A stretch of DNA of 64,000 nt from Pseudobdellovibrionaceae bacterium (GTDB taxonomy: Bacteria > Bdellovibrionota > Bdellovibrionia > Bdellovibrionales > Bdellovibrionaceae), in NCBI GenBank assembly GCA_031428135.1, contig JANPOT010000022.1:19201-83200 (forward strand), written 5' to 3'. Both the position numbers and the translations under genes were made by a program. This document shows positions 1,853 to 15,890 of this stretch, in pieces. Under the pieces are notes generated by a model. It saw nothing but the letters and a program-made list of their open reading frames with translations, had not been told where the DNA came from and made no database searches. The stretch's first letter is position 1; every line of letters begins with the position of its first letter.

Positions 1853-3697
1853 ATGAAAAAAAATACACGATCAACTGTGTTTGGATTTTTTACATCAATT
1901 TTAGTTTTATCTGGTTTGTTTTTTAGCTGCAGTAGTTCACAAAAACGAGAATCCGCAAACACCCTACCCAAACCAAAACATTATATTATGACATTGCATG
2001 GAATTCGCGGAAACGATGTTTCATTCGGCGATTTCCATAATCTGATAAAAACTCATTTAGAAAAAATTGATCCCGGGTACGAAGTCGTTCCGCTGAACTT
2101 AACGTATACAATTGCAGACGTGAACTACACGCCCGAAAAAGCAGGCCGCGAAATTCAAGCCAAGCTTGCCAAAATCGTTCCGGTGCTGAATCCGATCGAT
2201 CAAATTTCTGTCGTAGCGTATTCGATGGGTGGCCAAGTCGGCCTGGCTTGGTACTTCGAAGCACTCAAAGATCCCACAGCAAAAATATACGCAGATCAAG
2301 TGACTCATTTTATAGGATTGGGCGCAGCCTATTGGGGGGCCAAAGAAGCCGGCCTTGCGACGTCGGATATCCATATTTTAAAAGCAACGCTGAAACACAT
2401 ATCTGCCGAAATCAGAAATTTAATTCGCGAAAACTCATCACGTTATTTGTGGGATTCAATCACAAATACAATCATTTGGCTACAGGGAAAAACTGACGCA
2501 CAAATTAATACGACACTGGATAAGCTTCAAACCATCGAACAAATCAAGAAATTTTATGATGAAAACATCCGGACGCTTTCTGCAGTCAAAATCAGCTTCA
2601 ACGAATTCGTAGGACTTTCGCTGGGCGGCGTGCCTGAGACGAATTTACGTATTGGATTATTAAGCCAAGTCGGCAACAAAAAAAATTCAGTCAAATGGAC
2701 AACGATTGCACCCTTAGTTCAATGTTTTGAATCAAATGCCGGAGCAAAAACAGAAGGCTGTGATGATTTTCAAAATCCAGTTTTTAAATTTATCAATGAA
2801 TCAATCAATAGACCATATACATTTGGTTACAAACGACGTGAAACAGATAACGCCGTGATTACACCTTCAGGCAATGCACAGTTCATTGCTGTCGTTGATT
2901 CAAATGAAAATTATGTCGATGGACAAATCACCCCCATCAGCTCATCAAAATATGTGATCTTACCCGCAAATCACAAAGTCTATTTTACTGAAGCATCGCA
3001 TGCGACAGTTGTTTCTGCTGGCCAATACGACAAAGCAATCATCAATTTAAATAAATTGGGCGATTCATGGACCAGGTTGGCCTTGGATGTTGTTCTGGTT
3101 TATAATTCAAACTGCACTGACAACAGCAAATGTGCTACGCACCCGTCTTATAAATATGTACTTAATGCCTTAGCCGATTGCGATCGCGTAAATTCGACGT
3201 GTGATTCAAACGATAAAACTTTAAATACAATTTTTAACAAAGACACCGTGCGCACTGCTCAGGATAAATTAGCCTCTGAAATGCACGGTTTTACAGTCGA
3301 GTTGAATTTACGATTACCCAAAGGCTATGATATTTCAAAATTTGATGAAAAAAATATTTTAAACCATATTCAGTTCGAAACAGAAAAAATAAATGAAACG
3401 AAATATTTAAAATCGTCACTTAATTCTGAAACCAAAATCGCAATTGCCAGGGAAAAAGAAGTCGCTTCGATATTAATAAAAAAAATGACTGATTACAAAG
3501 ACCAAGATCAGCTGAAGGTCGTATTAACTGGATTATTTATTCCAAACGAGGATTCAAAATACAATTACCGTGCCTTAGAAAATGGAACAGCCATTTCATT
3601 CAAGATTGACCTGCCCGGAATTAAATCACGATTGATCAATACAATTGTTCGTCCTTACCATTCAACGTTTTTGGATTTGAAAATGAGTCCTCAATAA
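1853..3697 (+). CDS. Lipoprotein with alpha/beta-hydrolase (lipase/esterase-like) domain and long C-terminal region
   Basis: Start reassigned to ATG 1853 (SD GAGGGGG); lipobox LFFSC; oxyanion LHGIRG; nucleophile elbow AYSMGG. Confidence 0.8.
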   Translation: MKKNTRSTVFGFFTSILVLSGLFFSCSSSQKRESANTLPKPKHYIMTLHGIRGNDVSFGDFHNLIKTHLEKIDPGYEVVPLNLTYTIADVNYTPEKAGREIQAKLAKIVPVLNPIDQISVVAYSMGGQVGLAWYFEALKDPTAKIYADQVTHFIGLGAAYWGAKEAGLATSDIHILKATLKHISAEIRNLIRENSSRYLWDSITNTIIWLQGKTDAQINTTLDKLQTIEQIKKFYDENIRTLSAVKISFNEFVGLSLGGVPETNLRIGLLSQVGNKKNSVKWTTIAPLVQCFESNAGAKTEGCDDFQNPVFKFINESINRPYTFGYKRRETDNAVITPSGNAQFIAVVDSNENYVDGQITPISSSKYVILPANHKVYFTEASHATVVSAGQYDKAIINLNKLGDSWTRLALDVVLVYNSNCTDNSKCATHPSYKYVLNALADCDRVNSTCDSNDKTLNTIFNKDTVRTAQDKLASEMHGFTVELNLRLPKGYDISKFDEKNILNHIQFETEKINETKYLKSSLNSETKIAIAREKEVASILIKKMTDYKDQDQLKVVLTGLFIPNEDSKYNYRALENGTAISFKIDLPGIKSRLINTIVRPYHSTFLDLKMSPQ

Positions 3698-4542
3698 TGA
3701 ATAAAATTTTAAGCATCCTGTTGTTTTCATTATTTTCAATAGCTAGCCAAGCCAACGATGTCGTTGTCCTTGTACCAGGATTTTTTAATGCCTTTGCGCC
3801 TGATTATTTTTCAAAAGATATTGTGCATTCATTCCAGAAAAAAGGTTTTCGCGTTTATGTCATCGAAGGATTAAATCCTATCGGCACGATCGAAGAAAAT
3901 GGCACACGATTAATTCCGCAGCTGCAGCACATTCGAAAAAATGAAACTGGAAAAATAAATATTATTGCTCATAGCGCCGGAGGTTTTTATTCGTTGTACG
4001 CCATACAAAATGGCAAAGTCGACATTAAAAATTTAGTGACTATCAGCACTCCGTATTTGGGCTTAGATTTTATCCAAGCTTGGCGCAACAATTCATCGTT
4101 ATTTACTGATTTAACGAACCTGGCATCAATCGAAGGGCTTAAACAGTTAACTCCGGAATACGTTGCAAATTTTGCAAAAAATATTCGCGTGCCTGAAGAG
4201 TTGAAAATATTTACGTACGGCGGATGGCAACCGCGCAGTTTGGATATTTGGAATGCTAAAAATTTATCAGGCGTACTCAGAGTCACAGATCATTTTATTC
4301 CGGGTGACTCAGATGGCATAGTCAGCTTTAAATCAAGTCTGGGAATTCATGGTTTTTTGACGAAATCAAATAAATCAGCCAAAATGTTTGTCGACCTAAA
4401 TTTTACGATTCCGTTGGAACACTGGGAACAAGTCTTGGATTATAAAAATTTTATTTTATTAGGCACCAGAAACATCAGCACCATTCAAGATCGACAGATT
4501 CGTTTTTATTCACAAATTGCAGATCTTGTTTCTAAAAACTAA
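3697..4542 (+). CDS. Secreted lipase, alpha/beta hydrolase
   Basis: Signal peptide; VPGFF; AHSAGG elbow; SDGIV and terminal HWEQ triad motifs; TAATG coupling to the upstream gene. Confidence 0.85.
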   Translation: MNKILSILLFSLFSIASQANDVVVLVPGFFNAFAPDYFSKDIVHSFQKKGFRVYVIEGLNPIGTIEENGTRLIPQLQHIRKNETGKINIIAHSAGGFYSLYAIQNGKVDIKNLVTISTPYLGLDFIQAWRNNSSLFTDLTNLASIEGLKQLTPEYVANFAKNIRVPEELKIFTYGGWQPRSLDIWNAKNLSGVLRVTDHFIPGDSDGIVSFKSSLGIHGFLTKSNKSAKMFVDLNFTIPLEHWEQVLDYKNFILLGTRNISTIQDRQIRFYSQIADLVSKN

Positions 4543-4550
4543 TTTTTTTA

Positions 4551-7500
4551 TTAGTTAGAAATCAATAAATCAAAGTCTTCTTTTGACAATCCACCTGAAT
4601 TTTTTGCAAGCTTCGTCGGATTTTCAACGTCAGACAATAAGGCCTGAAATTTACGATCCTTGCGCTCTTTAAGGATTTCAATTTTTTCCTCTAAAGACTC
4701 ATGCATAATGTATTTGAAGACTTGGACAGGCTTTTCCTGACCCAGCCTGTGCGCCCGATCCGTCGCTTGATTTTCAACCGATGGGTTCCACCATGGCTCT
4801 AAATGGAATACATAACTGGCTTTGGTTAAGTTTAAACCTACGCCACCCGTTTTTAACGTCATCAAAAGTACAGCGCCGGATTTCAAATGATGGAAATCTG
4901 ACAGAATAACCTGACGTTGTTTTGTTGGAACACCACCGTGTAAAACAAATACAGGAATATTATTTTTACGTAAAACCTCGGCCGTTCTGTTCAGAGTTTG
5001 AATAAACTGTGTAAATACTAATGCACTTTCACCGCTACTAATGATTTCGGTCACTGATTCCAACAGTGTCTGAATCTTAGGTGGTATTTTTTCATACTTC
5101 ACATTTGGTAATGCCGCAGGATCCGAGCATGCTTGGCGCAAACGTAAAAGCGCCGTTAACATTTGTAACTGGACATTGGGGGCTTTTGCGTCATTTGCTG
5201 GAAATTCAGACGTAAATTCATCAGTAAACTGACCCACATCTTCGATGTTATCATTATCAATGTCGTCAGTGTTTTTTAAATCAGCATTATTTTTAGCAGT
5301 CATATCCGTCAAAGCTTCTTGGATCTGGCGATTATAGGACAATGCAATATCACGATAAATTTGTTTTTGCTGATCTTCAAATGCAATTGATAATTTACTT
5401 TCTTGCTTCATTGGCAACTGATCTAAAATTTCCTTTTTAGTACGGCGTAACAACAAGGGCTTCATTTTTAATTTTAAATCGCTCATTTGTTCAGATGTGA
5501 TGATATCTGTATTTACGAACTGACGTCTAAAATCTTCAATTCGCCCTAATGAACCTGGCACCAAAATATCCATCAAAGAATAAAATTCACCGTAATGATT
5601 TTCCATCGGAGTACCCGTCAGGCAAATTTTGAATTGCGCTGACAATGACCTGGCTGCAGTTGTTCGTTTTGTTGCAATATTTTTTAAATTTTGCGCCTCA
5701 TCAAAAATAATTGTTTTCCATTTATATTGATCAAAATATTGATCGTGCTCCAACAGTAAACCATAGGTCGTAATGACCAACATCGGTATTTGATTCGCAA
5801 ATTTTTGGCCGACTTCATCCAATTTTTTGCTGTTAAATATCATCAATGGTAATTCCGGAGCAAATTTTTCAATTTCATTTTGCCAATTAAAAATCAAAGA
5901 CGATGGCACAACAATCAAAACTTGGCCCAGGTCATTTTTTTGTCGCAGAATTTCTAAAAAACATAATGCCTGTAATGTTTTTCCCAAACCCATATCATCC
6001 GCTAACAGGGCTCCTAATTTTAAATTATAGAGGTCTAAAATCCACTGAACACCGTACACCTGGTATGGCTTCAGATCCGCTTTAATTGTATTTGGAATCT
6101 GATTCAAAGGGCGAGTTGCACCCAATTGATCATAAAAATCACATAACTTTTTCCATTCATGATCGCCTCGAATTTGTATACCCGAAGCTCTTAATGCCAA
6201 CAGTTCTAATGTTTGATTGCGTGGCAATTGGTAAATTTTATCGTTTTTTTTCTGTTTAGAACTTTCGACTTTACCTTTTTGCAATTTTTGCCAAAAATGT
6301 TGCAGTCGACGTAATGAAGGAATTTGTTTCGCTGCCAAAATATAAATTTGACCTTCGTATTCGATGATTCCACCCTGGCTGCCTGTTAAAAATCGATCAG
6401 GGTCAACAGCTTTTCCATTTAAAAAAAACTGCGGGTTGAGTTCAAACCAATTAAAGTTTTTATTTTGATCCAGTTCGGATTCTAAAACAAAATCGACTTT
6501 GAATTGGTCTTCGTTTAATTCTTGCAATGGTTTGTCATTATAAAAAATAACAAAACCATGGGGAATCAATGGCTGCAAAGCATTTAATAAATCAACTAAA
6601 TGTTTGGATAACAAATCCATTTGAGTTTGAAATGAAGATCTGGGTTTTTTAAAAAATTCAGCTGAAGAATCAAAAATCATTTTTTGCATTAATGTAAATA
6701 TCAGCCTGAATTCTTTTTCGACTAATTGTTTCAAAACAATTTCGCCATTTTCTGAATAATAAGATTCGTCTGAATTGAAATTAAAAATTAATTCATCGAC
6801 CCATTTTTCAAAATAAATTAATACAGATTTTGAACACAAATCGACTAATGATTGATCTTGAAAAAATGTATTCCCTGGGCCCGCAATTAAAATATTTTTG
6901 ATGTTTTCATGCAAACTGATAAATACTGCGTCTTTTTGGTCTGTATCGATGATTCGTCCATCAGAGAGCTCTTTATAAAACAAATAATGTAAAACTTCAT
7001 AGGTTACATATTGTAAAATTCCGGTGTGTTTTAATATTTTCAGATCCCACTCTCGTCTGCGGGCTTGATTTGATGCCAGATCTTTGGGTTCAGCTTTTAA
7101 ATAAAATGATAGGCCTTCGGACAATGATTTAATCACTGTTGCTGAAATTTCAGACCAGTCTTTTTTGATTAAATCTTTTTGATCCGGAACACGCGCATGA
7201 GCTGCGATTTTTAATTCATTTTGGTCAGACAAATGAATGTGCAATTCGTGTTGGTTCATCGGAATTGTAATCGTATCCCCGCCGACTGTTGTTGGGATTG
7301 ATCTGGATTTTAAATATTGAATTGTTTTTTTAGCTAAAATTTGACTGGTGACTTCGAACTGAGGTCCCGATTGATTAAAAATTTCAACTTCTGATCCGAA
7401 AGATTTCAATTTTTCATCCAAGCAAATAAATTCATTCCGCCATGGGTATAATAAAATTGTCTGATCCTCAGGACGAATTGCAAATGAACTTAAGAAAAAT

Positions 7501-8180
7501 ATTTCAGCAGGCCCTTTTGAAATTAATTTAAATTCACAAACATAATTTTTATATTCATTAATCAGAACGCGCCAATCCAGTTCTGGTTTTAAATCAATTT
7601 CAAGACGTTGTATTTGGAACGCTTTTGATAAATTTGAAAAAGTCTGTAAATAAATTGGTGTCGTTTTTAGACTAATGGCTTTTGAAATTTGATTCATCAC
7701 CGCCTGCATGATTTTTTCAACTTCATTCACGGTTTGGCTTTTGAATGAATTTTTATATCTACTGAGTAGTGGCCATTGGGGATCTGCCGGTGAAATATCA
7801 AATTTATGATGTGGCAATAAATGTATCGGCACTTTTTTAGCCAATGGGTGTCGTAAAATGTCTTGGGCTGCGAACTGCATTCCGTTACTAAAATTATATC
7901 TGATCGATTCGGTCAAATGATTCAGTAAATTCACTTCGTGTAAAGTATTGCTTGAAAAAGAAATCAATTTTTTACGAAAAACTTCCGGCATATCCCAAGC
8001 ACGGGGCATAAATAATTCATCGTCTTTGTCGATATTTGTGAATTTATAATTTGTAAAATCAACATTTAGAAAATTCTTTACACTTTGGTCTTTGAACAAA
8101 GCAGCATCTTCCATAAATAAGCTTATGGAATCAAAAGTAACGTCATTAAATTTCTGGAATAATGTCTCGAATTTGCTCAA
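4551..8180 (-). CDS. SNF2/SWI2-family helicase-like ATPase
   Basis: LLADDMGLGKT, DEAQNLKN, LTGTPMEN, LRLRQAC, GGVGLNLT, EPWWNP, QATDRAHRLGQ. Confidence 0.95.
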   Translation of the reverse strand: MSKFETLFQKFNDVTFDSISLFMEDAALFKDQSVKNFLNVDFTNYKFTNIDKDDELFMPRAWDMPEVFRKKLISFSSNTLHEVNLLNHLTESIRYNFSNGMQFAAQDILRHPLAKKVPIHLLPHHKFDISPADPQWPLLSRYKNSFKSQTVNEVEKIMQAVMNQISKAISLKTTPIYLQTFSNLSKAFQIQRLEIDLKPELDWRVLINEYKNYVCEFKLISKGPAEIFFLSSFAIRPEDQTILLYPWRNEFICLDEKLKSFGSEVEIFNQSGPQFEVTSQILAKKTIQYLKSRSIPTTVGGDTITIPMNQHELHIHLSDQNELKIAAHARVPDQKDLIKKDWSEISATVIKSLSEGLSFYLKAEPKDLASNQARRREWDLKILKHTGILQYVTYEVLHYLFYKELSDGRIIDTDQKDAVFISLHENIKNILIAGPGNTFFQDQSLVDLCSKSVLIYFEKWVDELIFNFNSDESYYSENGEIVLKQLVEKEFRLIFTLMQKMIFDSSAEFFKKPRSSFQTQMDLLSKHLVDLLNALQPLIPHGFVIFYNDKPLQELNEDQFKVDFVLESELDQNKNFNWFELNPQFFLNGKAVDPDRFLTGSQGGIIEYEGQIYILAAKQIPSLRRLQHFWQKLQKGKVESSKQKKNDKIYQLPRNQTLELLALRASGIQIRGDHEWKKLCDFYDQLGATRPLNQIPNTIKADLKPYQVYGVQWILDLYNLKLGALLADDMGLGKTLQALCFLEILRQKNDLGQVLIVVPSSLIFNWQNEIEKFAPELPLMIFNSKKLDEVGQKFANQIPMLVITTYGLLLEHDQYFDQYKWKTIIFDEAQNLKNIATKRTTAARSLSAQFKICLTGTPMENHYGEFYSLMDILVPGSLGRIEDFRRQFVNTDIITSEQMSDLKLKMKPLLLRRTKKEILDQLPMKQESKLSIAFEDQQKQIYRDIALSYNRQIQEALTDMTAKNNADLKNTDDIDNDNIEDVGQFTDEFTSEFPANDAKAPNVQLQMLTALLRLRQACSDPAALPNVKYEKIPPKIQTLLESVTEIISSGESALVFTQFIQTLNRTAEVLRKNNIPVFVLHGGVPTKQRQVILSDFHHLKSGAVLLMTLKTGGVGLNLTKASYVFHLEPWWNPSVENQATDRAHRLGQEKPVQVFKYIMHESLEEKIEILKERKDRKFQALLSDVENPTKLAKNSGGLSKEDFDLLISN

Positions 8181-8367
8181 TCAGGCATGATACATCTGAA
8201 AATGTAACTGTCAAACGAGGAAGTTCATTTCAGGTGTCGATTTAAAAATTTGATTCTAAATATGCTTATTATTTCGCAAGATAAGAAATTGATTGTATAT
8301 AATAACGAAATATGCATATCGATTTTTGGCTTGTAAATTCAAAGCCTCTCATAAAAGAGCTGCTATT

Positions 8368-9006
8368 TTACCATTTTTTTTGTTGAGCGTACGATTTCCA
8401 TTGCGAAATTATTTCTTTTTCGTTTTTACCAGAAAATCGAACATCAGTTAATTTTTGCAAAGCTTCGATGCCGATCAAAGCCATTTTTGAATCTTTTTCG
8501 TGTAAAAATTGAACAAAAAAGGGTTTTTCCTGAGCCAACGGTTTTTCTGCCAAATGACTTAACATTTGTGGCCTGATCCATAAACTGGCTTGTCCATTGA
8601 AGTTATATTTTTTTGTTAATTCTTCAGAAAAAATTCTGCGAACATCGGTGTTATCCAATCTTATTAAAATATCCGCCGATGCAGATCGAACGACTAATGA
8701 TTTGTCAGAAATTAATTCTTTGGCTTTGTCATAAACCAAATCAGTTCCTATTTTTTCTAATGCAACTAAAGTTGCATTACGCATAAACCAGTCTTTGTCT
8801 TTGGCAAATGCAATAATTTTTTGAATTTGTGATCCATCAGCTGATTCTGCTGCCAACAATAAGGCTTTCCATCTTGAACTCATTGGCAATGCTGTGTTTT
8901 TTGCCAATATGTACTGAGCTTCAAAATTATTTATTTCAGATTCAGGCAATGATGCTGTAGCGACCAGCGACGATAGAGTTATTAAGACAATTAAAAATTT
9001 TTTCAT
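8368..9006 (-). CDS. Secreted HEAT-repeat protein
   Basis: Signal peptide; HEAT-like units DKDWFMRNATLVAL and DKSLVVRSASADIL. Confidence 0.75.
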   Translation of the reverse strand: MKKFLIVLITLSSLVATASLPESEINNFEAQYILAKNTALPMSSRWKALLLAAESADGSQIQKIIAFAKDKDWFMRNATLVALEKIGTDLVYDKAKELISDKSLVVRSASADILIRLDNTDVRRIFSEELTKKYNFNGQASLWIRPQMLSHLAEKPLAQEKPFFVQFLHEKDSKMALIGIEALQKLTDVRFSGKNEKEIISQWKSYAQQKKW

Positions 9007-9009
9007 TTT

Positions 9010-9630
9010 TTATGTTCCCTTTATTTTTTCAAATTGTTCAATAAGATTTTTTTCTTGATCGGTGACAATTGTGTTTTCGACCTGTGCTGAATCCTGATTT
9101 TCATTCAATACTGATGATTTTTGATTTTTAATTTGCATCATTAGTTTTTGATTTTCTTCGCGCAATTGATATAAATCTGCAATGTCTTCGGCAATGACTT
9201 CGTAATCACTTAATCTGTTTTTTAAATCTTCGATCTGTTTTTTATATTCACTTTCATCAACAGCCACTGTTGATGAAAGTGTTGCATTATTATTTGAAAT
9301 CGTGTTCTGGTCTGCGATCTGTTGTTTCAGTTTTAAATTTTCTGCTTGAATTTTTTCGATCTGTTCAATCGCTTCTGATGAAGACGCCGTTATATTAAAT
9401 GTTTGTTCTGAATTGTTTTTTTGCTGGGATATTGATTCGGATATTTGATACGTTTTTTTTACAGAATTTGTGGAATTATTTTCTGTTAAATTGTCTGTAT
9501 TGGCTGATGGTTTACTTTGAACAAAAAATAACCTAAAGATAAAGAAACACAATAATAGCCCTATAATAACAGACAACGACTGAATCATCAGTGAATTATT
9601 TTTTGAATACCAATACAGCAATTGTTCCAT
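9010..9630 (-). CDS. Membrane-anchored coiled-coil hypothetical protein
   Basis: One N-terminal TM helix, then heptad-rich segments. Confidence 0.75.
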   Translation of the reverse strand: MEQLLYWYSKNNSLMIQSLSVIIGLLLCFFIFRLFFVQSKPSANTDNLTENNSTNSVKKTYQISESISQQKNNSEQTFNITASSSEAIEQIEKIQAENLKLKQQIADQNTISNNNATLSSTVAVDESEYKKQIEDLKNRLSDYEVIAEDIADLYQLREENQKLMMQIKNQKSSVLNENQDSAQVENTIVTDQEKNLIEQFEKIKGT

Positions 9631-9730
9631 TCATCCAATTCTATATAAACACAGGGTTTTTGCATAGACTTTGCATGTAATCAGCAAACTGGACTGGACC
9701 ATTGGCCATTCTTTTGTTATTATTCTAAAT

Positions 9731-11071
9731 ATGGCGCATTACGATTTGATCATTAAAAACGCAACAGTTTCAACTTATCATCAGAAAAATTTACGCGTTG
9801 AAACCGAAATAACAAATATCGGAATCAGCCATCAAAAAATTATTTCGCTCAATACTCTATCCACCGATACCGCAACCGAAGAAATCAATTTACGAGGACT
9901 GCATCTGCTGCCTGGAATTATTGATTCGCAGGTTCATTTCCGAGAACCCGGGATGACACACAAAGAAGACCTTGAATCTGGAACCAGATCTGCGTTGATG
10001 GGTGGCGTGACCAGTATATTTGAAATGCCAAATACTAATCCATCAACAACGACTCCTGAACAATTTCAAGAAAAATTAAATTTAGCAAAAAACCGTGCTC
10101 ATTGCCATTATGCATTTTTTATTGGTGGAGCTTCGGATAATTTTTTTGATTTAAATAAATTAGAAAATTTACCACACTGCTCGGGCGTCAAAGTTTTTTT
10201 AGGCAGCTCTTTTGGAAACCTGTTGGTTGATGATGATACAATTTTTAAACAAATTTTAAAGAATGGAAAACGTCGCGTGATTATTCATTCCGAAGACGAA
10301 GCCCGTTTAAAATCGCGTAAACAAATTGCCATCGATGCTATGCATCCTCGAGCACATCCTATTTGGCGCGATGAAGAAAGCGCGATGATTTCTACAAAAA
10401 AATCGATTGCCTTTGCGCGTGAAGCCCAGCGCCCAGTTCATATCTTGCATATTTCATCTTCTGAAGAAATGCAGTTCTTAAAACAAAATAAAGACATTGC
10501 TACCGTTGAAATTTTACCACAATATTTAACTTTGTCGGCACCCGAATGTTACGAACGGCTGGGCACCTTTGCTCAGCAAAATCCACCCATCAGAGACAAA
10601 CGGCATATGGAATTTTTATGGCGCGCCATGCACGACGGCACTGTTGATGTGATTGGTTCAGATCATGCGCCACATACGATCGATGAAAAAAACAAACCTT
10701 ACCCACAATCACCCAGCGGGCTGCCCGGCGTTCAAACATTGGTTCCTATCATGTTGAATCATGTAAATAAAAATAATTTACAACTGAAACAATTTGTTCA
10801 AATGACCACTGAAAACCCACGTCGTATTTTCGGCGCCAAAAACAAAGGTCGTATTGCCGTAGGATTTGATGCTGATTTCACAGTCATTGATTTAAAACGG
10901 ATCGAAGAAATCAAATCGACATGGCTGCAAAGCAAAGTCGGATGGTCGCCATTTATGGGCATGCGTGTTCAAGGATGGCCTGTGATGACAATTTTAAACG
11001 GGAAAATTTGTATGCGTGATTCCCAAATTATTCAACCTAATTCAGGCCAGGCCATTCATTTTGAATACTGA
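9731..11071 (+). CDS. pyrC: Dihydroorotase (amidohydrolase superfamily)
   Basis: IDSQVHFREPG, FEMPNT, HILHIS, GSDHAPH; start reassigned to ATG 9731. Confidence 0.88.
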   Translation: MAHYDLIIKNATVSTYHQKNLRVETEITNIGISHQKIISLNTLSTDTATEEINLRGLHLLPGIIDSQVHFREPGMTHKEDLESGTRSALMGGVTSIFEMPNTNPSTTTPEQFQEKLNLAKNRAHCHYAFFIGGASDNFFDLNKLENLPHCSGVKVFLGSSFGNLLVDDDTIFKQILKNGKRRVIIHSEDEARLKSRKQIAIDAMHPRAHPIWRDEESAMISTKKSIAFAREAQRPVHILHISSSEEMQFLKQNKDIATVEILPQYLTLSAPECYERLGTFAQQNPPIRDKRHMEFLWRAMHDGTVDVIGSDHAPHTIDEKNKPYPQSPSGLPGVQTLVPIMLNHVNKNNLQLKQFVQMTTENPRRIFGAKNKGRIAVGFDADFTVIDLKRIEEIKSTWLQSKVGWSPFMGMRVQGWPVMTILNGKICMRDSQIIQPNSGQAIHFEY

Positions 11072-11672
11072 TTCTGAAAATTTTGAACACAAAAAAAATG
11101 CCCCTACGACAGCAACATCGAAATCACAAGCAGTTGGTTTGTTGATTGGCGGATTACTGCCCGTTATTGCATTCACCGTCATCGAAGAAAAATATGGTAT
11201 TATCGCAGGCTTGATTGCCGGCATGATTTTTAGCCTTGGTGAAATTACATTTGAAATCATTAAATATAAAAAAGTTCAAACCATCACGTGGATTGGAAAT
11301 GGGTTGCTGATCGGTTTGGGTGCCATTTCATTAATTTCGACAGAAGGAATTTGGTTTAAATTACAACCTGCCATTTTTGAATTTGGTTTTTTTATATTTT
11401 TACTGAGCAGCTGGATTATGAAAAAACCGTTTTTAAAATTAATGATTGAAAAACAAAATCCCAATGTGCCAGAATTTTTAAAAAATGCAATGAGCGGTAT
11501 AACATTCAGAATTTCATTTTTTTTCTTAGTTCATGCCGTCATCGCAACATACGCGGCGCTTTATTGGTCAACGGAAGCCTGGGCCACATTAAAAGGCTTG
11601 GGCCTGACCATTTCGATGGTTTTATATATGATCATCGAAATGTTTTTGCTCCGAAAACAGATTCGGAAATAG
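11061..11672 (+). CDS. yciB: Intracellular septation protein A / YciB family membrane protein
   Basis: Multi-TM; WFKLQPAIF, WSTEAWATLKGLG resemble the family; TTG 11061 chosen as likely start. Confidence 0.7.
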   Translation: MNTDSENFEHKKNAPTTATSKSQAVGLLIGGLLPVIAFTVIEEKYGIIAGLIAGMIFSLGEITFEIIKYKKVQTITWIGNGLLIGLGAISLISTEGIWFKLQPAIFEFGFFIFLLSSWIMKKPFLKLMIEKQNPNVPEFLKNAMSGITFRISFFFLVHAVIATYAALYWSTEAWATLKGLGLTISMVLYMIIEMFLLRKQIRK

Positions 11673-11774
11673 ATTCCCCTTAAAAGACCCTATTGTAGTA
11701 TTTCGATAAAAAAGTTTCCGAAAACCTTAACTGAGTATTTGGTTGAAAAAACATGAGACAAGTTGGTCCGGTAA

Positions 11775-11821
11775 AAACGTATAAAGCCGATCAATTTTTT
11801 GTTGATCGGCTTTATACGTTT
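11775..11821. terminator. Perfect 20-bp inverted repeat, probable bidirectional terminator
   Basis: AAACGTATAAAGCCGATCAA-ttttttg-TTGATCGGCTTTATACGTTT between convergent genes. Confidence 0.8.
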
Positions 11822-11861
11822 AATTAATAAATTTTAAACGAACTCGATAATTTTATACAGA

Positions 11862-12377
11862 TTACTTTTTCTTAAGGGGCACAGTCACATTAAGGTTAAC
11901 TTGATTGTTAACGCCAACGCCCATGTATTTAACTCCGGTAATTCCATAATCAGATAATTTGATTGGAAAACTAGCGATCAGCTCATTACCTTCAACTGTA
12001 TAGATACCTTCAACATCTTTTTCTATGCCGCGAATTTTAAGTTTACCGCGACCTTTGCCGCCTTTTCCTGTCGCAGAAACTAATACGGCATCTGGATATT
12101 TTTCGACTTCAAGATATTTTGTTGTAGCATGCTTATCACGCATTTCAATTCCAGTTTTTAAATTTTTCAAACTCACTATAATATTTGAGGCGGCAATAGT
12201 GTCTCCGGTCATTAACGCTTCACCTTTAACTTCGCCAGTCTTTGCTTTAAAACTTCCAGCTGGTGATAATTCAACATCAACAACAGCGCCGGGTGTTGCC
12301 CATGCACCTATGCTACTGATGGACACGATTAAACTGACAATAACTTTTTTCCTTGCGTTTTTCATTGTGTTTTTCAT
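11862..12377 (-). CDS. YceI-family periplasmic lipid/polyisoprenoid-binding protein
   Basis: Signal peptide; LKTGIEMRDKHA, YLEVEKYP, IKLSDYGI; SD AAGGA before ATG 12377. Confidence 0.88.
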   Translation of the reverse strand: MKNTMKNARKKVIVSLIVSISSIGAWATPGAVVDVELSPAGSFKAKTGEVKGEALMTGDTIAASNIIVSLKNLKTGIEMRDKHATTKYLEVEKYPDAVLVSATGKGGKGRGKLKIRGIEKDVEGIYTVEGNELIASFPIKLSDYGITGVKYMGVGVNNQVNLNVTVPLKKK

Positions 12378-12396
12378 TGTGTTTTTCCTTTGTTGT

Positions 12397-12699
12397 TTAG
12401 TTATCAGCTGCTCCGCTATCAATCCAAGTTTTAATAGCGTTCAGCTGTATTGTTGTAAGACTAGATGAGCCTTTCGGCATGCTACCGCTTAATACCTTTT
12501 GGTAAAAAAGACTGCCGGCTCCGTTAAAAACAACGACACGCGTTTTTACGCCAGTATAATTTGCCATGTTGTAACCTCCGTCAGCGCCGGAACCAGAATG
12601 ACAAGAAAGACATTTACTTTGAACAACATTCGTATTGATCCATGCGAATGTTCCGAAAGTCGTCGCTGACGATGTCGTGGTGAAGCCCGAATTTCCCCC
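12397..12699 (-). pseudogene. Start-less reading frame encoding a c-type cytochrome domain (100 aa), absent from the ORF track
   Basis: My translation: GGNSGF...INTNVVQSKCLSCHSGSG...LFYQKVLSGSMPKGSSSLTTIQLNAIKTWIDSGAADN*; CxxCH, distal MP, and IKTWIDSGA tail; frame is preceded directly by an in-frame TAA. Confidence 0.8.
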
Positions 12700-12989
12700 T
12701 TAGAAACCTTTAGCTTTTCATTCCACATGTAATAACTAACCCCAAGCTCATAAGCTGAAGCCGTTCTGGGTGCAGGCTTTTTTATTTCTGCAGTTACTAC
12801 CGAAGCCACAGGTGCGACCACCAGCTGTGGCTTTGCTGCCGGTGCAGCTACATTTTTTACTGCTGTTTTTGTTGCAACTTTAATCTGTTTTTTAGGTGGA
12901 GGTGGAGCTTTTACTTGTGCTTGCGAAAAGGGTCCGACACCCAGACTAATCAAAATTTCTAAAATAAATATTTTGCTACCAAGAAACAT
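12699..12989 (-). pseudogene. Truncated secreted protein (signal peptide, Pro/Ala/Lys linker, first beta-strands of a probable outer-membrane barrel)
   Basis: First 97 aa look natural (…AYELGVSYYMWNEKLKVSK); the remaining ORF-track tail is the cytochrome gene read out of frame. Confidence 0.6.
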
Positions 12990-14142
12990 GGACCTGCCCT
13001 TGTAGTTGCCATTGATCTTTCGAGACCGCCTCTGGCGAAAAGTTTTTAAATTGAACTGCTGTCAACCTAACTTCAGTTCTTTGAAGCGGAAACATTAAAA
13101 ATCCAAACGTCCAACGCTCGAGTTCCGGAGCAGAAAATTTAGCTTCACTTTGACTGCGCTCGATGACTGTCAAAAAATTGTAGCCACGGACGAAGTGAAC
13201 CACAGATTGAAGTAAGCTATAAACCCCTGTCGTCGAATTGCTACCAACGGTTTGATCTTGCATTAAACCCGTTTCAAATAAAATACTTGAACCTTGGTTT
13301 CTTGGAAATCCCCAGCGGCTATGTATTGCTAAACGTTTTGATTCAATTTGCTCATTTTTTTCAGTTAAAGCCGATGCGCCAATTCTGGTTTTTTCCCCCA
13401 ACGAATATTCAAACTGAAATGCGCCACCAGCTTTTCTAACAGCTGCTGGTCGAAATAAATTGCCGGCAAAAAGATGTAAACTGGCGTCCCAGTTTTCTTC
13501 AATCCATTGCAGATGGGTTCCGTGAACTTGATCATCCTGTCCAAGACCGATCGCAGCACGACTGTATTGTGTATGATTAGACGTTCTAAGGCCGTAAACT
13601 TTATCCATTAAACCTGTCTCAACAAGAAGTTTATCCGTTAAGTAAAATCGAAAATAATGTTCTCGGGAAATGGCGTCGATTTTATTTCCATCACCGTAGT
13701 AATCTGTTGCGGGAATTCCAGTTAAACCATAGTTCAGAACAAATATTTTCTGAGATGCTTCATCAAAACTAACAACCACATTGATGTCTCGTTGCATTTG
13801 AATCCAACGACTTATTGATTCTGAACCGCCGGGTTTAGTTTGAAACCAAAGGCCACGGTATTTGACCGATGGACGAATCCACCACGGAAGTTCCGTACCC
13901 GGAATAAAACCCGAATATTTTTCTGCAACTTCTTCATCGGATGTTTTATCTGAAGTCCAAAAATTTCGTGCAGCTATTTCCTGAGAAAATAAAGCACGTC
14001 CGTAATCAGTTAACGGCCCATTTCCCTGACTGTTATAATGACACATGATACAGGTCTTGTATCCGTACCCAATAAAATCTGGATATGACCATGCTTGAAT
14101 CGAAAAATAAGAAATAAGTAACAAAAAAAGAAGATTGCGCAT
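12976..14142 (-). CDS. Outer-membrane beta-barrel protein with N-terminal single CxxCH haem motif
   Basis: Signal peptide; CIMCH; many amphipathic beta-strands; C-terminal aromatic residue (QVHVSW). Confidence 0.75.
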   Translation of the reverse strand: MRNLLFLLLISYFSIQAWSYPDFIGYGYKTCIMCHYNSQGNGPLTDYGRALFSQEIAARNFWTSDKTSDEEVAEKYSGFIPGTELPWWIRPSVKYRGLWFQTKPGGSESISRWIQMQRDINVVVSFDEASQKIFVLNYGLTGIPATDYYGDGNKIDAISREHYFRFYLTDKLLVETGLMDKVYGLRTSNHTQYSRAAIGLGQDDQVHGTHLQWIEENWDASLHLFAGNLFRPAAVRKAGGAFQFEYSLGEKTRIGASALTEKNEQIESKRLAIHSRWGFPRNQGSSILFETGLMQDQTVGSNSTTGVYSLLQSVVHFVRGYNFLTVIERSQSEAKFSAPELERWTFGFLMFPLQRTEVRLTAVQFKNFSPEAVSKDQWQLQGQVHVSW

Positions 14143-14391
14143 TAATCTACGTTAAACACAGCTTTAAAAAAATTCAAGCAGTTTGGAGTTGGATTTTGAG
14201 TAATACTTTAGCACTACAATGAAAATAAATTTACGAAACTCATTTGTTGTAAGATTTCAAATTAAATTTTCGATATGTTTTTATCCAAATCTTCAGAAAG
14301 AAAATTTGGATGGGCGGGCCAGACCACTGTGTTTAATGGTCTTTACGCGACACGAAATTTGAAAATTTTCAGTTCGAGTCGAAGAACTAAT

Positions 14392-14467
14392 TGGTGGAGC
14401 CGACAGGACTCGAACCTGTAACCTACCGGTTCGAAGCCGGGAATTCTATCCATTGAACTACGGCTCC
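14392..14467 (-). tRNA. tRNA-Arg(UCG), CCA encoded
   Basis: 76-nt cloverleaf: GGAGCCG/CGGCTCC acceptor, CT-TCG-AA anticodon loop, GTTCGAGT T-loop, A20 Arg identity base. Confidence 0.95.
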
Positions 14468-14503
14468 ACGCCGAAAAAATATTTAACTTGAGATTACGGT
14501 AAA

Positions 14504-15139
14504 CTAATCTTGCCACCAAATCAACGTGTTCGAAAATTGATTTGGCGTTTCAGATGTTTTTTTGTGCTTATGAATCAGTTCTGATCGTAAAAAATCCAAT
14601 GCTTCGATTAAACCTTGTTCATATTGGTCTTTTTTAAATGATTTTTGTAATAAGGCCAGTAATTGATCATTGATTTGCTGTCTGTTTTCAATATTTGACC
14701 TGGGATCTGGCAACAGAACAATTTGACGTTCCATCACAGATATAAATAACAGTAATGCATTTTGCGATTTAGATTCGTGTAATTTTTTTTTGAAAAAAAT
14801 GCGTTCGGCTTTGTTATGAACTTGTCTGTGACGTTCGCGTGTTGAAATAAAAAAACGATCAACCCAATCGGATTTATCCAACAAAGTTCCTAAAATAATT
14901 GCCAAAAATGGCGCTGCAATAAAATACGGGATTTTTGTTGCATATGAATCTTGAAAAAAATAATCGATTGTTCCAATAAACAATAACAACAAGAACAATG
15001 AAATTATCCATTGAATATGTTCCACATAGCTTGATTTTTCCGCAATGACAGGGATGAATTCAAAATCGATTTCTGATTCAAATTGTTCAATCGCGTTTGA
15101 TATTTTTTCAGAATTGATGTGTTTTTTTAATTTATTCAT
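14504..15139 (-). CDS. TPM-domain membrane protein
   Basis: Two TMs; LLFISVMERQIVLLPD; lies in a lemA-TPM-TPM operon. Confidence 0.85.
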   Translation of the reverse strand: MNKLKKHINSEKISNAIEQFESEIDFEFIPVIAEKSSYVEHIQWIISLFLLLLFIGTIDYFFQDSYATKIPYFIAAPFLAIILGTLLDKSDWVDRFFISTRERHRQVHNKAERIFFKKKLHESKSQNALLLFISVMERQIVLLPDPRSNIENRQQINDQLLALLQKSFKKDQYEQGLIEALDFLRSELIHKHKKTSETPNQFSNTLIWWQD

Positions 15140-15865
15140 TTACCACCCACCACTGGCTCCGCCGCCGCTGGACGATCCGCCACCGCCAGACCAACCACCA
15201 CCGTGGCCCGATCCGCCGCCGCCACCACGTCCGCCTGACATGGCCATATACAAAATGCTTAATCCAGTCGATGGACTGATTATAAAAATTAATAGCCATA
15301 GACCCAATAAAATTAAAATTATAAATCCACTGCCGCCCCGTGATTTTTTATTTTTAACTGGAACTGATTTTAAATTTTCATCATAATTTCCCTCAGTTGC
15401 AAAATGCTGCAGACTGGAAACGCCCTGTAAAACACCCTGATCAAAATCACCCTGTTTGAAATACGGAGTAACTATATCGGAAATAATTCGTTTCGCCGTA
15501 ATATCAGGAATGACTCCCTCAAGGCCCTGGCCGACTTCGATACGCAGTTTTTTTTCATTCGGAGCTATTAAAAATAACAGACCTTGATCGGTTTTTTCGT
15601 CGCCTAATTTCCATTTATCAAAAATTTGAATGGCAACGCTTGCGATATCTTCATCGTTCAGCGAACTGGTTACAAAAATTTGGATCTGGATTTTTTGTGT
15701 TTGTTTAAATTGATATAATGATTGTTCCAGCTGATTTTTGGCCTGAGGCGACAGAATACCCACTTGGTCGATCACTGGCCCCGTTAATTTGGGCACAACA
15801 AAGGCCTGTGTTTGAAAACACAAGCCAAGAATAAATAAAAAAATGCTTAAGTTTTTTATAGTCAG
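15140..15865 (-). CDS. TPM-domain (YgcG-like) protein with Gly-rich tail
   Basis: VIDQVGILS, LRIEVGQGLEGVIPD, GGGGSSSGGGASGGW; frame is open to 15874, so the signal peptide needs a CTG (15865) or ATA (15859) start. Confidence 0.88.
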   Translation of the reverse strand: MTIKNLSIFLFILGLCFQTQAFVVPKLTGPVIDQVGILSPQAKNQLEQSLYQFKQTQKIQIQIFVTSSLNDEDIASVAIQIFDKWKLGDEKTDQGLLFLIAPNEKKLRIEVGQGLEGVIPDITAKRIISDIVTPYFKQGDFDQGVLQGVSSLQHFATEGNYDENLKSVPVKNKKSRGGSGFIILILLGLWLLIFIISPSTGLSILYMAMSGGRGGGGGSGHGGGWSGGGGSSSGGGASGGW

Positions 15866-15890
15866 GCCTTTAGCTTAAAAATTACGACAA

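Follow-up and report, generated by a model that had tools for sequence, protein, structure and literature searches.

Four genes follow one another on the minus strand of the 64,000-nt stretch of Pseudobdellovibrionaceae DNA analyzed here (contig JANPOT010000022.1, assembly GCA_031428135.1; hereafter the window), the outer two intact and the inner two reduced to remnants. Gene A (12976..14142, minus strand), the first in the cluster, is an intact open reading frame (ORF) of 388 aa, 79 to 81% identical to its orthologues in four same-genus genomes. Gene D (11862..12377, minus strand), the last, is also intact, encodes a YceI-like periplasmic protein (PF04264; E value, 3.6e-16), and is syntenic in all relatives. 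Between them lie the 5′ end of a gene B and the 3′ end of a gene C, joined out of frame.

Results

Protein A carries a signal peptide and a CxxCH motif (C31, C34, H35) that is conserved without exception down to 45% identity; its body is beta-rich, and its C terminus has an aromatic residue. The family shares an invariant N-terminal motif, Y-P-x-F-I-x-Y-G-Y-x-x-C-x-x-C-H-x-N-S-Q-G (orthologues L031-L037), and gene A stands near a YceI gene in all loci that extend far enough, even those without B and C. Pfam, NCBIfam, and PDB sequence searches (the last with a profile of A) returned no match to protein A. An AlphaFold model of A built from a 7-sequence alignment was all-beta and of low confidence (pLDDT, 43.6), and that of intact B (5 sequences) reached a pLDDT of 33.8. 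For A and B alike, the barrel assignment is putative and is drawn from strand-rich predictions, signal peptides, and C-terminal aromatic motifs; protein A may be a haem-binding outer-membrane barrel.

For gene D, exact look-ups of three possible YceI start variants found none of them on record. The start of the gene (window about 12352-12363, minus strand) shows a 12-nt in-frame indel relative to the same-species contig L039 described below, the N terminus reading MKNTMKNARKK... in the window and MKNTMKK... in L039, where the start region is short, repetitive, and rich in AAAAAC. The window also differs from this contig by a 78-bp insertion/deletion (positions 11695-11772), which lies straight after a terminator-like hairpin (AAACGTATAAAGCCGATCAAC...GATCGGCTTTATACGTTTTT) downstream of YceI and is a second structural polymorphism within the same 1 kb.

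Between A and D, the ORF list gives a minus-strand ORF of 147 aa (12989..12546), whose translation contains ...YELGVSYYMWNEKLKVSKGEIRASPRH...*. Its upstream part is the 5′ remnant of gene B (12700..12989, minus strand), which takes in the signal peptide, a linker rich in Pro, Ala, and Lys, and the first conserved strand, YELGVSYYMWNEKLKVS, and aligns with residues 22-72 of the B protein of the same-genus genome G011. The rest (12546..12698, minus strand) consists of 50 nonsense codons (GEIRASPRHRQRR...) followed by a stop and is the cytochrome remnant read in the wrong frame; no homologue of this tail was found, the only match to P0002 covering 68% of the query, namely, the B part. A GGGGG run stands at 12699-12695, and the neighbouring frame has a TAA immediately before it (12702-12700). 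From the run, this second frame (12699..12397, minus strand) is stop-free for 100 codons and then ends in a stop, reading GGNSGFTTTSSATTFGTFAWINTNVVQSKCLSCH...GSMPK...IKTWIDSGAADN*. No ATG, GTG, or TTG was found in it between the TAA and the CxxCH motif. The sole ORF called in this frame begins at M45, downstream of the haem motif, and the ORF called within the C remnant is 56 aa long.

The original prediction, made from the letters and an ORF list, had described the 147-aa ORF as a chimera that hides a clean 100-aa c-type cytochrome frame, starting at the G5 run straight after a TAA and lacking a start codon and a signal peptide. All of this was borne out by the coordinates, the translations, the homologue matches, and the intact B and C genes of relatives. 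The 97 aa ascribed to the upstream part came close: exactly, B contributes 96 codons and 2 bases, and K97 takes its G from C. One added G would bring the B part and the cytochrome part into one frame, so the arithmetic of the 197-aa fusion that had been proposed to arise through an extra G or a −1 slip works; the slip itself found no support.

The hidden frame is the 3′ remnant of gene C (12397..12699, minus strand), namely, its last 100 codons and stop, and corresponds to a C-terminal mono-haem cytochrome c domain that carries CLSCH and GSMP and has no export signal in its own frame. When 40 related genomes were searched in six frames, the 100-aa fragment proved to be 79% identical (E value, 2e-49) to residues 595-694 of the 694-aa C protein of G011, which occupies a 695-codon open frame. 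With 98 of 100 residues also identical to the C protein of a same-species contig (P0011, from L039), the frame is far beyond what chance would produce. Alone, the remnant scored below the cut-offs of PF13442 (19.6 bits versus 27) and PF07635 (15.9 bits versus 22) and matched NF047812 at an E value of 2.3e-15 over profile positions 31 to 116 of 118 (56.7 bits versus a cut-off of 100). Intact full-length C proteins exceed the PF13442 cut-off (36.9 and 31.2 bits versus 27). A PDB sequence search with the remnant gave only marginal matches, with cytochrome c-553 at an E value of 0.065. The CxxCH motif (CLSCH) is conserved in all orthologues; GSMP is conserved in the window and the four same-genus orthologues and takes the form G-[ST]-MP in more distant ones, and its Met is presumably the distal haem ligand. 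Judged from these sequence comparisons, the Pfam and NCBIfam cytochrome c matches of the remnant are real, though under the curated cut-offs.

Intact A, B, C, and D occur in a row in four same-genus genomes (G011, G053, G048, and G049), the relatives being metagenome-assembled genomes labelled Bdellovibrionales, Bdellovibrio sp., or Pseudobdellovibrionaceae. A comparison of the orthologous operon in relatives had been put forward in the original prediction, and in all four genomes it showed two complete genes, B and C, and no fusion. In these relatives, A encodes a beta-rich protein of 387 aa with a CxxCH motif, B a small barrel-like protein of 216 to 266 aa, C a protein of 694 aa with a cytochrome c domain, five FN3 domains, and another cytochrome c domain (Pfam), and D a YceI protein. 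At the G011 locus (L013), the 387-aa A protein has a signal peptide, the motif YGYKTCVMCH, and a beta-rich body; the 216-aa B protein has a signal peptide and a linker followed by FELGTSYNMWNERLVVSNGSVTTEGFANYAG...; the 694-aa C protein has an N-terminal FQNC motif ahead of its first cytochrome c domain; and the YceI protein D is 163 aa long. FQNC is a possible lipoprotein signal, and the product of gene C is probably a lipoprotein. Measured against G011, the window covers residues 9-387 of A, only 22-72 (of 216) of B, only 595-694 (of 694) of C, and 2-163 of D, and the protein alignments switch from B ...MWNEKLKVS(K)G to C GGNSGFTTTSSATTF....

Of the 51 other genomes in the genus, only 5 were found to have gene B, which marks the cluster as accessory and makes its loss unsurprising. 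At distant loci (L036, L037, G015, and a second G049 locus), A occurs with YceI and C is absent; A and YceI look like the core of the cluster, and both are kept in this strain. The layout of cytochrome c, FN3 repeats, and cytochrome c recurs in many metagenomic proteins (P0029-P0058; 587 to 700 aa, some longer), which their sources name solely “fibronectin type III domain-containing” or “titin.” G049 (L028, contig C25, about 3300-5100) and G015 (L029) have another, paralogous A-B pair, with A 38 to 43% and B 26 to 30% identical to the G011 proteins and no C adjoining in the stretches examined; the A-B module appears to be duplicated or diversified within the genus. Between the G053 and G048 loci (L026 and L027, from two species), dS is about 1.86 for gene A, 0.15 for the C-terminal part of C, and 0.05 for YceI (dN, 0.003), a mosaic divergence suggesting that the 3′ part of the cluster recently recombined or was transferred between these two species of the one genus.

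Two same-species contigs (98 to 99.8% nucleotide identity) hold an intact B (244 aa) and an intact C (694 aa). As a query for homologues, the 147-aa chimera matched a single other protein, the 244-aa P0003, which is 96% identical over B residues 1-96 and goes on ...KVSNGTVTTEGFANYAG... to an ordinary B C terminus. Its contig, L038 (JANOZX010000215.1, GCA_031429615.1), is 99.78% identical to window 15877..12697, after which homology ends, and breaks off 41 bp past B. Among the C homologues, the 694-aa protein P0011 differs from the window remnant at two positions in its last 100 residues. Its contig, L039 (Logan, SRR22198340), is 97.95% identical to window 12699..11772 and 99.1% identical to 11694..5044, and its alignment to the window opens exactly at 12699, the first G of the run. 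L038 and L039 share an overlap of about 313 bp and, when joined, form an intact A-B-C-D reference for the species.

Three-way alignment of the window, L038, and L039 placed the deletion junction between 12699 and 12700 (minus strand), the final B-derived base being 12700 and the initial C-derived base 12699. With a slash for the breakpoint, the window reads ...TCTAA/GGGGGAAAT... from B into C, the intact B allele TCTAA/TGGCAC, and the intact C allele ATACC/GGGGGAAAT; the join is therefore blunt (microhomology, 0 nt), and C supplies all five Gs. In the alignment, L038 reads ...GGTTTCTAA/TGGCAC, L039 ...ATAATACC/GGGGGAAATTCGGGC, and the window ...GGTTTCTAA/GGGGGAAATTCGGGC. In longer context, intact B is ...AAAGGTTTCTAA/TGGCACAGTCAC..., intact C is ...GCATATAATACC/GGGGGAAATTCGGGC..., and the window is ...AAAGGTTTCTAA/GGGGGAAATTCGGGC..., so written across the junction as TTTCTAAGGGGGAAATTC (also TTTCTAA/GGGGGAAATTC). 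Lys-97 of the chimera (AAG) is the AAT (Asn) codon of B with its third base swapped for the first G of C, and the TAA ahead of the cytochrome domain is the ...TCT AA of B as read in the C frame. The preferred reading of the original prediction, a deletion fusing a barrel-type gene to a cytochrome gene, held up, and its proposal that the fusion ran through G microhomology failed. Microhomology was rejected, no base being common to both sides; nearby chance similarities (TTATTAC and ACAGTCAC) are out of register.

The G5 run (12695..12699, minus strand) corresponds to native Gly-Gly codons, GGG GGA, of gene C: five Gs also stand in the identical GGGGGAAAT of the intact, in-frame C allele of L039, and G049 has GGG GGC at this position. 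By this comparison, the run is native to C and not made by the rearrangement. From the L038/L039 overlap, the missing length is about 2,376 bp (486 bp to the end of L038 plus 1,890 bp in L039), a figure uncertain by 1 bp through an A-run polymorphism in that overlap.

The junction was recovered by a different assembler: the Logan contig L030 (SRR20217178; 1,941 bp) is 100% identical to window 14355..12415, junction and G5 included, SRR20217178 possibly being the same data as the genome assembly. An exact look-up of protein A returned the same Logan contig only. The deleted parts of B and C were absent elsewhere in the window’s own genome (99.98% complete; 37 contigs), in which searches with intact B and C found just the remnants and unrelated FN3/cytochrome proteins (27 to 42% identity). 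A degenerate pattern for YYMWNEKLKVSKG scanned in JGI metagenomes gave 0 matches. The two sides of the junction have no sequence in common and so offer no repeat or shared k-mer on which a graph assembler could mis-join; the junction k-mers should therefore be in the reads.

Compared with the same-genus genomes, the C remnant has a dN/dS of 0.09 to 0.12, and the intact orthologues among themselves have 0.07 to 0.16; dS in the comparisons with same-genus genomes is near saturation, and these values mostly reflect time before the deletion. Compared with the same-species intact allele, the remnant shows 4 differences in 303 nt, 2 of them synonymous and 2 non-synonymous (E76K and R80S). No relaxed selection on the remnant was detectable with dS saturated and same-species differences this few. 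Both the dN/dS values and the 4-nt difference fit a very recent event. A junction that is blunt and free of homology speaks for illegitimate recombination and against slippage between repeats, and a search of the genome found no Ku domain. Ku-dependent (Ku/LigD) end joining was considered and is unsupported in a genome without a detectable Ku domain; we infer that the deletion arose by Ku-independent illegitimate recombination.

Discussion

We consider it highly probable (about 0.9) that a conserved four-gene cluster in this Bdellovibrionales bacterium has recently lost about 2.4 kb through a strain-specific deletion, the locus being the scar that remains. Such a deletion would span B codon 97 to C codon 594 and would have taken away the distal ~60% of B, 85% of C, and, between the two genes, the intergenic stretch with the start of C, leaving ends that were fused bluntly and out of frame with no homology between them. 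From the B start, translation would run through 50 nonsense codons into the cytochrome remnant and stop, giving the 147-aa product, and the 100 codons of the cytochrome domain, having no start codon and no signal peptide, would not be made. Intact alleles that persist in the same species at 98 to 99.8% identity would make the deletion very young, and a very young deletion would account for a domain that still looks clean. Genes B and C are presumably non-functional in this strain, and A and D are presumably still working. The hidden cytochrome is an ordinary pseudogene remnant of a large cytochrome gene.

Both genes would really be intact if the contig wrongly joined B to the end of C or collapsed strain variants. 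That the genome is a 37-contig draft from a group known solely as metagenome-assembled genomes speaks for such an artefact, as does the break of the same-species assembly 41 bp after B, which marks the region as hard to assemble. A mis-join would nonetheless have had no common k-mer to form on, the Logan assembler gave the identical 1,941-bp contig across the junction, and the missing 2.4 kb is in none of the 37 contigs. Misassembly, which the original prediction had listed among its alternatives, is disfavoured on these grounds, and we hold an assembly artefact to be improbable. Its further alternatives, a sequencing indel or homopolymer phase variation, are likewise disfavoured, the tract being G5 in the intact, in-frame allele too.

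Were the run a miscalled G6, the deletion would have produced an in-frame, Sec-exported fusion of 197 aa, in which the signal peptide and linker of B precede a mono-haem cytochrome c. A single added G does restore the frame, neither CxxCH nor the GSMP Met has been lost, and in nature a family of small lipoproteins (NF047812) has this domain standing alone, so a fusion would not be absurd if the frame were restored; this last is the sole argument for a functional fusion. Set against these points, the in-frame run of the intact allele is exactly G5, the length expected after a simple deletion, a G6 needs a second event, and two assemblies concur on G5, which makes a miscall very unlikely. A related reading keeps the deletion allele alive: −1 slippage on A-AGG-GGG, or a G6 sub-population, would let the B signal peptide export the orphan haem domain. 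The clean state of the domain would also fit continued selection, and a stand-alone lipoprotein form of it exists in nature (the LIC11213 family); we give a living allele only a slim chance. Least probable of all is an on-off switch for the cytochrome fusion at AAG GGG G, worked by slipped-strand phase variation or by programmed −1 ribosomal frameshifting. Read from the sequence, a −1 slip could let the A-site tRNA-Gly pair again on G GGG, but U AAG GGG does not have the form of an X XXY YYZ heptamer, and the slipped P-site Lys tRNA would land on UAA, where it cannot re-pair (a U precedes AAG). The downstream RNA is not folded more stably than shuffled sequences (minimum free energy, −23.9 kcal/mol; mean of the shuffles, −22.7; z = −0.42), and the juxtaposition is that of a recent deletion accident, all relatives having separate, complete B and C genes. 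Five Gs are a short tract for phase variation, and all three sequences compared (the window, L030, and L039) have five.

If the deletion allele were alive after all, it would encode a new 197-aa secreted mini-cytochrome formed by domain shuffling, like the stand-alone LIC11213-type proteins, and would be a case of gene birth by deletion caught inside one species. Under the preferred reading of a recent, inactivating deletion, the 147-aa and 56-aa ORFs should be annotated as pseudogene fragments and not as proteins, and the finding matters little beyond correct annotation. The locus would also be a natural knockout of B and C in which A and YceI are kept, which could aid study of this uncharacterised cluster, and the cluster would be dispensable within a species.

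Set beside known gene-inactivating strain deletions, the locus shares their main features: two adjacent genes have been cut short and fused, each remnant corresponds to an internal part of an intact orthologue, the species still has segregating intact alleles, and the fused ORF ends in nonsense codons. Nothing essential differs, the particulars being the zero-homology blunt junction without a detectable Ku and the pristine cytochrome domain. Remnants of this kind are flagged as “frameshifted/incomplete” by annotation pipelines. With class I c-type cytochromes (PF13442, Cytochrome_CBB3; PF07635, PSCyt1), the remnant shares CxxCH, the downstream Met of G-S-M-P, and a length of about 90 aa, although alone it falls under both cut-offs, as given above. 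Haem attachment needs export, and a fragment without an export signal cannot be matured. The LIC11213 family lipoproteins (NF047812; about 118 aa, stand-alone) have the same CxxCH ... MP ... WI..GA layout, and at 56.7 against 100 bits, the remnant counts as a homologous domain that does not belong to the family; here, in contrast to the stand-alone form, the domain closes a 694-aa FN3-repeat protein as its C-terminal module and is left in this strain without a start or signal peptide. The intact cluster resembles porin-cytochrome conduits (MtrCAB/PioAB) in that outer-membrane-type, beta-rich proteins adjoin an exported multidomain cytochrome. It differs in that A-B-C-D have no sequence match to any such family, C has just two haem motifs split by five FN3 domains rather than being a multihaem wire, and protein A itself bears a haem motif; a porin-cytochrome conduit is a possible analogy for the cluster.
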